NCBI GenBank assembly: GCA_963708135.1
Contig: OY970192.1
Span: 1,088,001-1,152,000 of the forward strand
DNA length: 64,000 nucleotides
Reading direction: 5' to 3'
Source of the DNA: an uncultured Gemmatimonadales bacterium
GTDB taxonomy: Bacteria > Gemmatimonadota > Gemmatimonadetes > Longimicrobiales > RSA9
Shown here: one piece after another, positions 25,827-29,829 of the stretch
Position numbering within the stretch: the stretch's first letter is position 1
Layout: the number at the start of each line of letters is the position of its first letter
Notes under the pieces: model-generated
Told to the model about the DNA's origin: nothing
Database searches by the model: none
The model's input: the letters and a program-made list of their open reading frames with translations, nothing else
Made by a program: the position numbers and the translations under genes

Positions 25827-27284
25827 ATGAAGCTGACGTTCCGCCACGGGGTTCACCCCCCGGAATCGAAGGAGCTGACGGAGCACGTGCCGTTGCGGCG
25901 CCTGCCGTTCGCGGCGGAGCTCGTGCTCCCGCTCCGGCAGCACGCGGGAAAGCCGGCCGTCCCGCTCGTGAAGGTCGGGGACCACGTGCAGCGGGGCGAC
26001 CGGATCGCCGAGGCCGACGGCTTCGTCTCCTCGCCCGTGCACGCCTCGGCGGCCGGCGTGGTGAAGTCGATCGGCTGGTGGCCGCACCCGGACGGGACCA
26101 TGGCGGAGGCGATCCGGATCGCGGTGGACCGCTACTCGCCCCACATCCCGCGGCCGCGCATGGTGCCGCACTGGGAGGGGCTCTCGGCCGCGCAGGTGGT
26201 GAAGGCCGTGCAGGACGCGGGCGTGGTCGGCCTCGGCGGCGCCGCCTTCCCGACGCACGTCAAGCTCTCGCCGCCGAAGGACGCGAAGATCCACACCCTG
26301 ATCGTGAACGGCGCCGAGTGCGAGCCGTACCTGACCACGGACCACCGGACCATGGTCGAGTACCCGGAGCGCGTGCACTTCGGCGTGCGCATCATGATGA
26401 AGGCGCTCGGCGTCGCGCGAGCCGTAATCGGCGTCGAGATGAACAAGCCGGACGCCATCGAGCGGCTGCGCGCCACCCGGCCCGGGGACCTCGACGTCAC
26501 GATCCTGCCGCTCACGGTGAAATATCCGCAGGGCGCCGAGAAGATGCTGATCGAGGTGGTCACCGGGAAGCGGGTGCCGTCCGGCAGGCTGCCGCTGCAC
26601 GTGGGCGTGGTGGTGCAGAACGTCGGCTCGATCGCCACCATCGCGGAGGTCTTCGAGACCGGGCTGCCGCTGGTCGAGCGGATCGTCACCATATCGGGCC
26701 ATGGCGTGCGCCGCCCCTCCAATCTGATCGTGCCCGTCGGCACGAAGATCCGCGATGCGCTCGAGTTCTGCGGCGGGCTCAGGGAGGACGCGAGCGAGAT
26801 CGTGTTCGGCGGCCCGATGATGGGCACCTCGCAGCCGGACCTCGATACGCCGATCATCAAGGGCACCACCGGCGTGATCGTGCTCAGGCACGCCGACACG
26901 CCGCGCCGCGAGACGCTGCCCTGCATCCGCTGCGGCCGCTGCCTCGACGCCTGCCCCGTCTTCCTGAACCCCTCGCAGCTCGGGCTGCTCGCGCAGGCCG
27001 GCCGCTACGAGGACATGGAGGCGCTGCACCTGGCCGACTGCATGCTGTGCGGCTCCTGCTCCTACGTCTGCCCGTCGAGCATCCCGCTCAGCCAGATGTT
27101 CTCGCTGGGCAGGACGGCGCTGCGGAAGCTGAAGGCGGCGGAAGCCGCGAAGGCGAAGGCGGAGGCCGCGGCCCGCGGGGCGGCGGAGGGCGGCGTCGCC
27201 GCCAGCGGGCCCGGCGGCGCGGCGGCCGGTGCATCGGCCCCGGCCGGCGGCGCGGCCGCGCGGAAGGAGGCGGTGCCCGCATGA
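25827..27284 (+). CDS. rnfC: Rnf complex subunit C
   Basis: GLGGAAFPT, NGAECEPYLT, YPQGAEK, GGPMMG, CIRCGRCLDACP and CMLCGSCSYVCP motifs. Confidence 0.95.
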   Translation: MKLTFRHGVHPPESKELTEHVPLRRLPFAAELVLPLRQHAGKPAVPLVKVGDHVQRGDRIAEADGFVSSPVHASAAGVVKSIGWWPHPDGTMAEAIRIAVDRYSPHIPRPRMVPHWEGLSAAQVVKAVQDAGVVGLGGAAFPTHVKLSPPKDAKIHTLIVNGAECEPYLTTDHRTMVEYPERVHFGVRIMMKALGVARAVIGVEMNKPDAIERLRATRPGDLDVTILPLTVKYPQGAEKMLIEVVTGKRVPSGRLPLHVGVVVQNVGSIATIAEVFETGLPLVERIVTISGHGVRRPSNLIVPVGTKIRDALEFCGGLREDASEIVFGGPMMGTSQPDLDTPIIKGTTGVIVLRHADTPRRETLPCIRCGRCLDACPVFLNPSQLGLLAQAGRYEDMEALHLADCMLCGSCSYVCPSSIPLSQMFSLGRTALRKLKAAEAAKAKAEAAARGAAEGGVAASGPGGAAAGASAPAGGAAARKEAVPA

Positions 27285-27310
27285 GACACCCTGTGTCAAC
27301 CCCCCTGTGT

Positions 27311-28558
27311 TCAAGCAGCCGCCGCGGTGGGTTCCGCGGGGGTGAAGAAGGGGATAGCCCGTCCGTGTCGGGAGGGGTCGTAGGTGGACCGATTGTGCCA
27401 GCAGCGCCACAGCACGCGGACCCAGGCTCGGGCGAGGATTCGGATTGCGTGCGGGTGATCGCAGCCGCGGGCACGGGCGCACTTGTAGACGGCGGCGGCC
27501 CAGGGGTGGGCATGGCGGGAGTTGTCCGCCCAGGTGGTGAGGGCTTGTCGCAGGCGCTTGTTGCAGGCGAAGCGGCAGGCGACGCCGCGATGCTTGCCGG
27601 AGCTGTGCGTAACGGGGGCGACGCCGGCTTCGGCGGCGAGCTGGGCGTCGGTGGCGAAGCGGAGCCGGTCGTCGCCGAGCTCGGCGAGAATCTGGGCGGC
27701 ATTGATGGTGCCGGTGCGGGGGAAGGACTTCAGGATCTCACCGTCGGGATGCTGCGCGAGGTGAGCGGCGATGAGCCCGTCGAGCTCGCGGATCTGAGCC
27801 ACGAGAGGGCGGAGGACGGCGACCAGGGAACGGACGAGCTGACCTTTGGTCTCGCTCTCGAGCTCGGCGGCCTGCCCTGCGGGGGCGGAGCGGAGCCGCT
27901 CGAGGAGCTGATCGACCGGCCGGCGGCCGCAGTAGGCAGTGCGCTTGAGGAATCGTTCGAGGCGCTTGGGCCCGAGGCGGGCGGCGCTCTCCGGGGTGGG
28001 GTAGGCGTCCAGGAAATCGAGGGCGATCGGGCTATCGACATCGGCGAAAATGGCGGCAGCGCCGGCCCAGAAGCTGTCGAGCAGGCTGCGGAGCTGATTG
28101 GCGAGCTGGACGCGGGTCGCGACCAGGTCATCGCGGGTGCGAACGGCGGCGCGAAGCGCCTTGGTGCGATCGGAGGGGACCCGGAGCGGCCGGAATCGAT
28201 GCCCATCGGTACGCAGGACGTCGGCGAGGATGTAGGCATCACCGGGATCGCTCTTCCCCGGAGCCGCGGCGTAGCGGGGCCGGGTGGCCTTGAGGGCGTT
28301 CGGGTGGATCGGAACGACCGGGAAGCCGGCCTCGACCAACGTATCCACCAGAAGTCCGGACGGCCGCTCGATGGCGATGGGCAGCTGCGCCGGAGAGCTG
28401 ACGCGACGCAGGCGCCGGATCAGCTCACTCAGCCCACCGGCCGTGTGAGGGATGGTGAACGCGTCAACGAGGGCGCCGCTCAGATCGAGCACACAGACGT
28501 CATGCTTGTCGCTGGCCCAGTCAATTCCGACGAGGTAGCTTGGATCCAGTCCTTCCAC
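27311..28558 (-). CDS. IS110 family transposase/recombinase
   Basis: VGIDWA, AIERP and KSDPGDA (DEDD residues), GVAPVTHSSGK (catalytic Ser region), NKRLR; GGAGG RBS. Confidence 0.95.
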   Translation of the reverse strand: MEGLDPSYLVGIDWASDKHDVCVLDLSGALVDAFTIPHTAGGLSELIRRLRRVSSPAQLPIAIERPSGLLVDTLVEAGFPVVPIHPNALKATRPRYAAAPGKSDPGDAYILADVLRTDGHRFRPLRVPSDRTKALRAAVRTRDDLVATRVQLANQLRSLLDSFWAGAAAIFADVDSPIALDFLDAYPTPESAARLGPKRLERFLKRTAYCGRRPVDQLLERLRSAPAGQAAELESETKGQLVRSLVAVLRPLVAQIRELDGLIAAHLAQHPDGEILKSFPRTGTINAAQILAELGDDRLRFATDAQLAAEAGVAPVTHSSGKHRGVACRFACNKRLRQALTTWADNSRHAHPWAAAVYKCARARGCDHPHAIRILARAWVRVLWRCWHNRSTYDPSRHGRAIPFFTPAEPTAAAA

Positions 28559-28594
28559 GCCTCACCTCCGAGCAGAGATTCACTCCCTCGCTCC

Positions 28595-28800
28595 GGCGTT
28601 GGAAGGTCTCACCGATCGCTCACTGAAAGGCGCTCTCGGCTTCAGGTGCCGTGGCGCTACACCCTGTGGTCGGTTGGGGCCTTCCACGCCGGGCAGGGGA
28701 GCGGGTCTCATGCGGGCCGTCGAGCGGCAAGCGACGCTGGCTCTCCCTACCCGGACGCCGAAGCACTTCTCTTGAGCGGCGCGAATCTACGCCCCGCTGA
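28595..28800 (-). ncRNA. Predicted IS110 bridge RNA (5' hairpin, target-binding loop, donor-binding loop)
   Basis: Stems 28775-28799, 28689-28754 and 28595-28690; loop segments match the element's own target flank and ends (see findings). Transcript ends are approximate. Confidence 0.8.
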
Positions 28801-28815
28801 GGGTAAGGTGCACCA

Positions 28816-29829
28816 GTGAGCGAGCTCGACGCGGGCCGCCTCCAGATCGCGGCCTCGCCCCACATCCAGGCGGCCGACAGCACCGAGCGGATCATGTGGA
28901 CGGTGGTGGCCACGCTCGTGCCGATCGTGGGCGCCTCCTTCTGGTTCTTCGGCCTGGGCGCGCTGCTCGTCATCGCCAGCGCGACGCTCGGCGCCATGGC
29001 CACCGAGCGCGCGTTCGGCCGGCCGCGCGCGCTCCGCGACGGCTCCGCCGCCATCACCGGGCTGCTCCTCGGGCTCACGCTGCCGCCGGGATTCCCGCTG
29101 TGGATGGCGGCGATCGGCGGCGCCTTCGCGATCGGGCTGGGCAAGCTGATCTTCGGCGGGCTGGGGCAGAACGTCTTCAATCCCGCGCTGCTCGGGCGCG
29201 CGTTCCTGCAGGCGGCGTTCCCCACGGCCATCACCACCTGGCCCACGGTCGGGCAGGGATGGACCACGCTCTACCCGTCCAACTTCGCGTTCCCCTTCGT
29301 GCAGGCGGCGCCCGACGCGGTCACCGCCGCCACGCCGCTCGGGCTCATGAAGTTCGAGCACCACATGACGGACGTGCTGCCCATGATCACCGGCCATACC
29401 GGCGGCTCGCTCGGCGAGACGGCGGGTGCCCTGATTCTCATATGCGGCGCCTACCTGGCCTGGAAGCGCTACCTCGACTGGCGCATCCCGACGAGCATCA
29501 TCCTCACCGTGGCCGGGCTGAGCGCGCTGCTGCACCTGTTCGGCGGCGAGCGCTTCCCGACCGCCGGCTTCATGCTCTTCTCCGGCGGGCTCATGCTCGG
29601 CGCCGTCTACATGGCCACCGACATGGTCACCTCGCCCACCACGCCGAAGGGGGCCTGGATCTTCGGCTTCGGCATCGGCGCGCTCGTCGTGCTGATCCGG
29701 ATCTGGGGCGGGCTGCCGGAGGGCGTCATGTACGCGATCCTGCTCATGAACGCGCTGGTGCCGTTCCTGAACCGCTGGACGCAGCCGCGCGTGTTCGGTA
29801 CGCCGGGTCGGAAGGAGGCCGCAGCGTGA
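28816..29829 (+). CDS. rnfD: Rnf complex subunit D
   Basis: ASPHI, GGLGQNVFNPALLGRAFL, DAVTAATPL (flavinylation Thr), GSLGET and MATDMVTSP motifs. Confidence 0.95.
   Translation: MSELDAGRLQIAASPHIQAADSTERIMWTVVATLVPIVGASFWFFGLGALLVIASATLGAMATERAFGRPRALRDGSAAITGLLLGLTLPPGFPLWMAAIGGAFAIGLGKLIFGGLGQNVFNPALLGRAFLQAAFPTAITTWPTVGQGWTTLYPSNFAFPFVQAAPDAVTAATPLGLMKFEHHMTDVLPMITGHTGGSLGETAGALILICGAYLAWKRYLDWRIPTSIILTVAGLSALLHLFGGERFPTAGFMLFSGGLMLGAVYMATDMVTSPTTPKGAWIFGFGIGALVVLIRIWGGLPEGVMYAILLMNALVPFLNRWTQPRVFGTPGRKEAAA

Follow-up and report, generated by a model that had tools for sequence, protein, structure and literature searches.

An IS110-group element with a putative bridge RNA lies on the rnfC/rnfD overlap of a Gemmatimonadales genome

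The element, its copies and its recombinase

The window, a 64,000-nucleotide (nt) stretch of DNA from an uncultured Gemmatimonadales bacterium (assembly GCA_963708135.1, contig OY970192.1, positions 1,088,001 to 1,152,000), carries an insertion element of the IS110 family between rnfC and rnfD, two genes of an Rnf operon. Upstream of its recombinase gene, the element has a long non-coding left end, which we read as the gene of a putative bridge RNA, i.e., a guide RNA with a target-binding loop followed by a donor-binding loop. The reference for such RNAs is IS621 of Escherichia coli, a member of the IS110 group with a 177-nt bridge RNA (PMC11208160, PMC11208158). The element and its flanking cores are placed as follows, in positions of the window, with the minus strand being the element strand.

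27286..28818, minus strand: IS110-family element of 1533 bp, running from its left end (28818) to its right end (27286), as delimited by guide matches and homolog alignment
28819..28820, minus strand: left copy of the CT core, the end of the left half of the target; CT precedes the left end in 4/4 copies
27284..27285, minus strand: right-hand CT core, present after the right end in 4/4 copies and, again as CT, in 60/64 homologs with a located right end
27311..28558, minus strand: recombinase gene, 415 amino acids (aa), combining a DEDD domain of the RuvC-like type with a Tnp domain that bears the catalytic serine, assigned from Pfam, NCBIfam and a profile match to IS621

Four full copies of the element were found in the 5.45-Mb genome, differing by 0-1 substitutions across the 1530 bases compared and lying in unrelated flanks. 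Read on the element strand, all four copies show ..G-CT-CAC-TGGTGC.. at the left junction and ..GGGTGT-CT-CATG.. at the right junction, and these common junction reads place the body at 27286-28818 between two CT cores. This agrees with an earlier note on the same DNA, made from the sequence alone, which had named CT as the shared core on the element strand; the sequence strings reported in that note were likewise all found at their positions on direct inspection. The non-coding left end upstream of the recombinase gene measures 260 nt (28559-28818) and the right end 25 nt (27286-27310), which is the layout of the IS110 group with its long left and short right non-coding ends (legend in PMC11208160/PMC11208158).

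The recombinase matched the Pfam families PF01548 (DEDD_Tnp_IS110; 2.4e-37) and PF02371 (Transposase_20; 2e-17), as well as the NCBIfam model NF033542, 'IS110 family RNA-guided transposase', with 204.7 bits against a cut-off of 140. A profile built from 28 recombinase sequences matched, over both domains, the IS621 transposase 8wt6 and five more entries (E 1.8e-18) and the ISCro4 transposase 9t56 (E 3.7e-17). Residues D13, E64, D104, D107, S320 and G321 are invariant across this profile and align with the DEDD motif, the catalytic S241 and the conserved G242 of IS621 (residue roles from PMC11208158). Elsewhere in the genome, three distant IS110-family paralogs (L010-L012), 24-26% identical to the window recombinase, lie within 30 kb of each other (G000:C1 810861-839445).

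Relatives of the element were collected by a scan of species-representative genomes, which returned 141, the best 80 loci of these 141 being kept (54-89% identity). The kept loci come from bins labelled Gemmatimonadales, Longimicrobiales, Acidobacteriota, many Alphaproteobacteria and Actinomycetota, the closest relatives being from metagenome bins under the first two of these labels. An alignment was made of the 330 nt preceding the gene for the 70 sequences (69 loci plus the window) with at least 250 nt in that interval. Trimming gave 46 distinct left ends for tests of structure, with controls in which pairing partners were slid by 1-3 columns. For tests of the target guides, removal of sequences with gaps at the left junction or guide region reduced the 70 to 62, and the demand for a recognizable left end to 52; 35 of the 52 had at least 9 nt of right flank. 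Right ends were found in 64/70 sequences by their likeness to the loop-2 segment. The recombinase match of each of L045, L046, L049, L050 and L085 contains one internal stop codon, so that these copies are likely decayed; L045 additionally violates the three-base length rule described below.

Covariation supports a two-loop structure of the left end

The structural features assigned to the left end are listed here.

28595..28754, minus strand: putative bridge RNA core, target-binding loop (loop 1) then donor-binding loop (loop 2), from half folds and covariation among the 46 homologs
28744..28754, minus strand: outer stem of the target-binding loop, 5′ strand, partner 28689-28700; helix 2, compensatory changes in 13/13 pairs
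28689..28700, minus strand: outer stem of the target-binding loop, 3′ strand, from helix 2 covariation
28716..28728, minus strand: inner hairpin of the target-binding loop; helix 3, 99.5% paired, compensatory changes in 3/4 pairs
28680..28690, minus strand: outer stem of the donor-binding loop, 5′ strand, partner 28595-28606; helix 4, 90.5% paired, compensatory changes in 7/8 pairs
28595..28606, minus strand: outer stem of the donor-binding loop, 3′ strand, from helix 4 covariation and a separate fold

The earlier note had proposed a small hairpin followed by two large stem-loops. Both of the stems it named are present (28689-28700/28744-28754 and 28595-28606/28680-28690). Folded alone, loop 1 (28689-28754) formed its outer stem and inner hairpin with a stability equalled by 1/200 shuffles (z -3.6), and this fold left both target guide segments in the internal loop. 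Loop 2 (28595-28690), likewise folded alone, gave an outer, a middle and an inner stem (z -2.83; 1/200 shuffles). The 5′ hairpin region is of ordinary stability (z -0.58; 51/200 shuffles).

Comparison of the 46 homologs points to an RNA. In a model of 44 base pairs, 92.3% of cells held standard pairs, as compared to 37.8-44.4% with slid partners; both sides had changed in 34 of the 44 pairs, and none of 500 shuffles attained any of these measures. RNAalifold, run on the same left ends, recovered the loop-1 outer stem, the loop-1 inner hairpin and the loop-2 inner hairpin.

Target guides covary with the flanks of independent insertions

Two segments of loop 1 are assigned as target guides.

28730..28738, minus strand: left target guide, RNA AGCGUCGCU, in the sense of the left target and thus pairing with its bottom strand; covariation at positions -8 to -3
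28707..28715, minus strand: right target guide; positions 4-7 covary with the right flanks

The chance of the individual matches was estimated from 5000 dinucleotide shuffles of the left end. The string ctcatgcgggc (28707-17) is the reverse complement of 27275-85, an 11-nt match that arose in 0/5000 shuffles, and agcga (28730-34) equals 28819-23, a 5-nt match to the left flank that arose in 4914/5000. On the donor side, acaccctgtg (28659-68) equals 27286-95 (10-nt match; 1/5000 shuffles) and ctcactg (28619-25) is complementary to 28814-20 (7-nt match; 455/5000). All four matches together occurred in 0/5000 shuffles. Taken alone, the 5-nt left-flank and 7-nt left-end matches are not significant, and their support comes from the comparison of homologs.

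Across the 52 homologs, the left guide agreed with the left flank at positions -8 to -3 in 25, 28, 30, 27, 40 and 51 sequences (shuffled means 14.5-40.5), values attained in 1, 27, 0, 0, 0 and 0 of 2000 shuffles, respectively. At positions 4-7, the right guide agreed with the right flank in 34, 34, 31 and 27 of 35 sequences, as compared to shuffled values of 28.5, 16.1, 13.3 and 17.6 (0/2000 shuffles for each). The covariation between guides and targets that the earlier note had named as a check was thus found for the left and the right target guide alike (0-27 of 2000 shuffles). Positions 8 and 9 of the right guide showed none, with 13 and 15 of 35 agreeing against 11.5 and 14.8 expected.

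The effective right guide therefore comprises the core plus 5 nt, and the window site is a 7/7 match to it. The 'perfect 11-nt right guide' of the earlier note holds over these seven positions and was overcounted in length: its four further matches sit on conserved structural bases, including the foot of the inner hairpin, and are not evidence for a longer guide. At the other three copies, the right guide matches 6, 7 and 6 of 7 positions. The left guide had been described as mismatched, and its weak match is real at all four copies (5, 4, 6 and 3 of 8); in the window copy, only the last 5 nt of the guide match the left flank (5/8).

Donor guides, core and handshake positions

Loop 2 provides the two donor guides, and a two-base handshake position follows the right guide of each loop.

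28659..28668, minus strand: left donor guide, RNA CACAGGGUGU, equal to the last 10 nt of the right end, from shuffles and variation among homologs
28619..28625, minus strand: right donor guide, RNA CAGUGAG, complement of the core and the first 5 nt of the left end, from helix 1 covariation
28705..28706, minus strand: handshake position AC after the right target guide, complementary to GT, the last two bases of the right end, as read from the sequence
28617..28618, minus strand: handshake position CG after the right donor guide, complementary to the target CG before the core, as read from the sequence

Over columns 1-7, the right donor guide is 100% complementary to the core and left end in the 46 sequences, with both-side changes in 5/7 columns. 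The 5′ side of loop 2, in turn, tracks the variants of the right end in homologs (GGGTG, GGAAG, GGATG, GGGAG and ATGGGAAG). Two features of the right ends lie outside the search pattern by which these were located, namely an adjoining (T/G)GACA motif and the core that follows (CT in 60 homologs, GT in 4).

The core takes part in the left target, right target and right donor guide pairings and is left unmatched by the left donor guide; in homologs, it covaries as CT, AT or GT between the guides and the left junction. Three homologs (L085, L088 and L089) have an AT core in the guides and at the left junction and GT at the right junction, so that their two flanking cores differ. These three are inserted at TGATG-type overlaps, and their right end holds its own in-frame ATG.

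Handshake guides, which follow each right guide, are defined by complementarity to the non-cognate DNA together with a required mismatch to the cognate one (PMC11208158). Both positions agree with this rule here: AC is complementary to the donor GT but not to the target CG, and for CG the complementary partner is the target CG, the donor GT being a mismatch. The AC position lies in a region conserved as GAGAC in most homologs. The bases before the core are CG at 3/4 copies and TG at the fourth.

Insertion at translation start signals

The genes on either side of the element are read on the opposite strand.

25827..27284, plus strand: rnfC, whose stop TGA 27282-84 is retained at the right junction; Pfam RnfC_N, Complex1_51K, SLBB and Fer4
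28816..29829, plus strand: rnfD, whose start is now GTG 28816-18 from the first three bases of the left end; Pfam NQR2_RnfD_RnfE over residues 11-328, profile 2-296

The element sits exactly on the stop/start overlap of rnfC and rnfD. ATG 27281-83 is the former rnfD start, and the insertion regenerates a stop plus a start codon at this junction. An rnfC-rnfD junction devoid of the element was found in nine relatives' genomes, with an ATGA stop/start overlap in at least six of them; in one relative (L101), the junction has nearly the same sequence as the two flanks in the window. In another relative (G004), a site at rnfC/rnfD (L096), ~60 nt upstream of the aligned rnfD start, matches both target guides (8/8 left, 9/9 right) and carries no element despite the match at every covarying position.

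The generality of this placement was surveyed in 29 homolog insertions with at least 600 nt on each side. A start codon (ATG or GTG) together with TGA was present at the junctions of 26/29. An opposite-strand open reading frame (ORF) of at least 40 aa began at the junction codon in 22/29, of which 17 had a Pfam hit and 5 had none. Among the 17, the domain was N-terminal in 12, ambiguous in 3 and internal in 2; a domain running from profile position 4 or lower within the first 25 residues was taken to mark a true N-terminus, as in those 12 ORFs. On the upstream side, 15/27 open stretches ending at the junction TGA had Pfam hits, and in at least 9 of these the domain ends at the stop. ORF length alone was rejected as proof of a gene start, since frame 2 also reached at least 100 aa in 15/29, and Pfam was used instead. 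The commonest target of the clade, ..CATGAG.., is a start codon overlapping the stop of the preceding gene, and other right guides aim elsewhere, at Shine-Dalgarno-like sequences (L069, L072) or at TGATG overlaps (the L085 group). Insertion in this clade is antisense and falls on the start codons of genes, in many cases on the ATGA stop/start overlap of two co-directional genes.

Within the genome of the window, the occupied sites are the rnfC/rnfD overlap, the start of an amidase ORF and the start of a 219-aa ORF without a known family, while the fourth copy (L004, 630487-632016) is located behind an EamA transporter gene rather than at a gene start. The EamA-family ORF is on the element strand of L004 and continues for 196 nt into the left end before its stop, which may have altered the C-terminus of its product.

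An antisense reading frame spans the element

The strand opposite the recombinase gene is open along the whole element.

27281..28819, plus strand: antisense frame of 513 codons, from the former rnfD ATG to the TGA at 28817-19, overlapping the new rnfD GTG
28805..28810, minus strand: CACCTT, conserved in left ends, with ACC nearly invariant in the trimmed left-end alignment

Starting at the former rnfD ATG, behind that ATG's GGAAGGAGG, the frame crosses the right end, the recombinase gene and the bridge-RNA region without a stop. Among 48 homologs, 44 have a junction start codon and junction stop separated by a multiple of 3; 34/48 keep the frame free of internal stops, and 5 more are interrupted only by an additional stop a single codon ahead of the terminal one. 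In these homologs, 4-20 stops were counted in the remaining two antisense frames. Between the core and the 3′ foot of loop 2, the non-coding interval takes 14 lengths (205-295 nt), all 1 modulo 3, in 58/62 sequences, and 3 of the 4 exceptions to this length rule have an unrecognized left end. Over the left end, the antisense frame is stop-free in 37/45 distinct sequences, as compared to 0-16/45 for the other five frames.

The codons TTA, CTA and TCA number 2/7911 in the recombinase genes and 42/10234 in Pfam-verified flanking host genes. The open antisense frame over the recombinase gene was rejected as evidence within the element's own genome, where controls are also free of these codons: rnfC, rnfD and three unrelated IS110 paralogs have none in this genome of 72% G+C, so that openness of the recombinase gene is uninformative here. 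The antisense product matched no Pfam family. The overlap regenerated at the end of the frame reads (A/G)TGA. It follows AAGGTG, which is CACCTT read on the plus strand, resembles a Shine-Dalgarno sequence and lies 5 nt before the new rnfD start. AAGGTG could act as the Shine-Dalgarno sequence of rnfD, and CACCTT on the other strand as a -10 element.

A candidate junction promoter and related RNA contigs

27294..27299, minus strand: TTGACA, a -35-like hexamer without mismatch, 8 nt ahead of the right core; TGACAC overlaps it in 47/64 homologs

Across a circle junction, CACCTT would lie 18 nt after TTGACA, and by analogy with IS621 the two may form a junction promoter in an excised circle. The right end also contains a direct repeat (27286-27315; TTGAACACAGGG and TTGACACAGGG), which amounts to a second near-copy of the -35-like hexamer and of the start of the segment recognized by the left donor guide.

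Fifteen sequencing runs contained part of the stretch, none of them with half its words. Contigs from 4 RNA libraries (4 studies) cover ~28561-28764 at 90-97% likeness, i.e., they stem from related elements, and one RNA-library contig covers part of the recombinase gene. The RNA-library runs had been chosen using that same stretch, their contigs give neither strand nor ends, and DNA carry-over is possible.

Discussion

We consider it very probable that 27286-28818 (minus strand) is an intact, recently mobile IS110-group element with a bridge RNA of two internal loops encoded in its long left end. This assessment rests on the recombinase families, the profile match to IS621, the catalytic residues, the four near-identical copies in unrelated flanks, the layout of the two ends and the covariation of stems and guides, all of which bear out the interpretation given in the earlier note. 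At the level of sequence, every testable hallmark of an IS110-group bridge-RNA system was found. By analogy, we infer transcription of the RNA with defined ends, its binding and catalysis; the element may likewise prove programmable and active.

In both loops, the 5′ side is like the top strand and the 3′ side complementary to it, which is the pattern of IS621 (PMC11208160/PMC11208158). If the element behaves like IS621, it would excise as a circle in which the right end is joined to the left end across one CT core, and the RNA and the recombinase would then be expressed. The donor-binding loop would hold this right-end/left-end junction and the target-binding loop the chromosomal site, with the 5′ side of the latter loop (..GCGUCGCU) pairing with the bottom strand left of the core. 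A recombinase tetramer, through its DEDD RuvC-like domain and catalytic serine, would exchange the top strands next to CT; the AC and CG after the right guides could pair with the incoming strand of the other DNA; and exchange of the bottom strands would follow, leaving the element flanked by CT.

Several observations weigh against this interpretation. The minimum-energy fold of the whole 256 nt does not contain the loop-1 stem (z -2.53); this fold mixes the domains, which were then folded separately. A scan of 27000-29200 with 4227 Rfam models gave 0 matches at E up to 1, and a search of solved structures with the single recombinase sequence gave no match, the profile being needed. The left donor guide stops before the core, its RNA reading ..UGUAG where the donor reads ..TGTCT. 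The candidate -10 element CACCTT agrees with the consensus at 2/6 positions, and a scan of both strands of 27200-28950 for promoters and terminators found none, so that a sigma-70-like promoter is lacking from the linear copy. The RNA evidence is weak, giving no more than a hint that left ends of related elements are present in RNA libraries. Right ends were located by loop similarity, which makes the covariation test of the left donor guide partly circular, and the homologs share descent, so that the shuffle counts overstate their independence.

A further adverse point is the behavior of the left target guide in the element's own genome. At the four occupied sites, it matches no better than at typical CTCATG sites (0.14-0.93 of 2342 unoccupied sites match at least as well), and 58 unoccupied CTCATG sites match the left arm at 7-8 of 8 positions, three of them perfectly over 8 nt. 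With poor matches at occupied sites and better ones at empty sites, the left arm does not explain occupancy in this genome. A preprint on IS621 reports that, in vitro, matching over the core plus a single arm can be enough (10.64898/2026.08.31.748434). The other obvious explanation is that only harmless insertions survive. A left guide with one bulged RNA base, tried post hoc and set aside as a lead only, would give 8, 7, 6 and 6 contiguous matches at the four sites, which fractions of 0.01, 0.036, 0.13 and 0.13 of the 2342 CTCATG sites equal.

Other explanations of the left end fare far worse than a bridge RNA. It might be an ordinary structured 5′ leader, or a set of subterminal DNA repeats bound by the transposase, in place of a source of RNA guides: both donor-side matches are repeats within the element and could be protein-binding sites, the transcript is a predicted one, the Rfam scan gave no match and the linear copy is promoterless. 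The compensatory stem changes in 34/44 pairs, however, point to RNA; the covariation of loop-1 segments extends to flanking sequence of independent insertions, for which DNA repeats within the element cannot account; and RNA guidance has been shown experimentally for the IS110 family (PMC11208160/PMC11208158). We regard a leader or DNA repeats as very improbable. Conservation of the left end might instead come from the antisense frame alone, with the RNA structure as a by-product, and the openness of that frame over the left end (37/45) and the three-base steps of its length (58/62) speak for some constraint of this sort. Protein coding would not lead one to expect compensatory stem changes or covariation of guides with flanks, the antisense product belongs to no known family, and both constraints can coexist; as the sole cause, the frame is an equally faint prospect. 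Least likely of all is that the complementarities are chance products of a genome of 72% G+C. Matches of 5 and 7 nt are indeed common, occurring in 4914 and 455 of 5000 shuffles, but those of 11 and 10 nt occurred in 0 and 1, all four together in none, and the same guide positions covary in homologs, which refutes chance as far as sequence analysis can go.

On the bridge-RNA interpretation, the element resembles IS621 in its DEDD and serine recombinase, its long left end encoding a target-binding and then a donor-binding loop, its CT core on both sides, its two-base handshake after each right guide and its -35 hexamer in the right end. It differs in that its recombinase is related only at the profile level and is longer (415 aa, as compared to 326 aa in IS621), its covarying right target guide is the core plus 5 nt (4-7 nt in IS621), its clade targets translation start regions and not the target sequence of IS621, its left donor guide ends before the core, and an antisense frame spans the element. 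ISCro4 (PDB 9t56), the second solved IS110-family recombinase matched by the profile, was compared by protein alone. In the IS1111 group, target choice is guided by a seekRNA (PMC11187229); these elements share the recombinase superfamily and the principle of RNA-guided targets (PMC11187229), and have short left and long right ends, opposite to the 260 nt upstream and 25 nt of the window element (legend in PMC11208160/PMC11208158).

The window element is thus a further natural ortholog of a known kind of bridge-RNA system and itself not surprising. As an ortholog from a high-G+C soil-type lineage, with all four guides readable, a 7-nt right target guide and natural sites known, it would be useful for comparative and engineering work on bridge recombinases. 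The greater interest is clade-wide: guides tuned to starts and overlaps, start and stop signals that are regenerated, and an antisense frame kept open in three-base steps across an RNA gene. This unusual aspect belongs to the clade and is not particular to the window copy.

The ORF named hed in IS900 reportedly goes back to Doran 1997, Microbiology 143:547. IS900, an IS110-family element of Mycobacterium avium subsp. paratuberculosis, targets translation initiation signals, and its hed is an ORF opposite the transposase that runs over the whole element and has no ribosome-binding site or start codon of its own, according to PMC8141618. The window element, compared with IS900 by description only, likewise has an opposite-strand ORF over its whole length, placed behind host start signals. 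Our full-text literature searches returned no work linking such an antisense-ORF arrangement to bridge-RNA guides, to a regenerated stop/start overlap or to a three-base length rule.

A reading that we hold tentatively, at somewhat short of an even chance, is that the elements of this clade are built for 'stealth' insertion into operons, combining guides to start signals, antisense orientation, a stop-free frame of 3n length and a regenerated overlap. Ribosomes loaded at the original start codon of the host gene could translate across the full element, stop at its end and start anew on the displaced gene (rnfD in this case); it is the open frame from start to stop, ending in a regenerated overlap, that suggests such read-through and re-initiation could occur. 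Read-through would keep translational coupling and avoid polarity. If this is true, a guide-RNA gene would be overlapped along its full length by a translated antisense frame, and the hed of IS900 would gain a mechanistic explanation tied to RNA-guided targeting. If the frame is translated, it would illustrate how RNA-guided mobile DNA makes landing inside operons less costly, and the locus would be a clear example of one stretch of DNA shared, on opposite strands, by a structured RNA gene and a reading frame.

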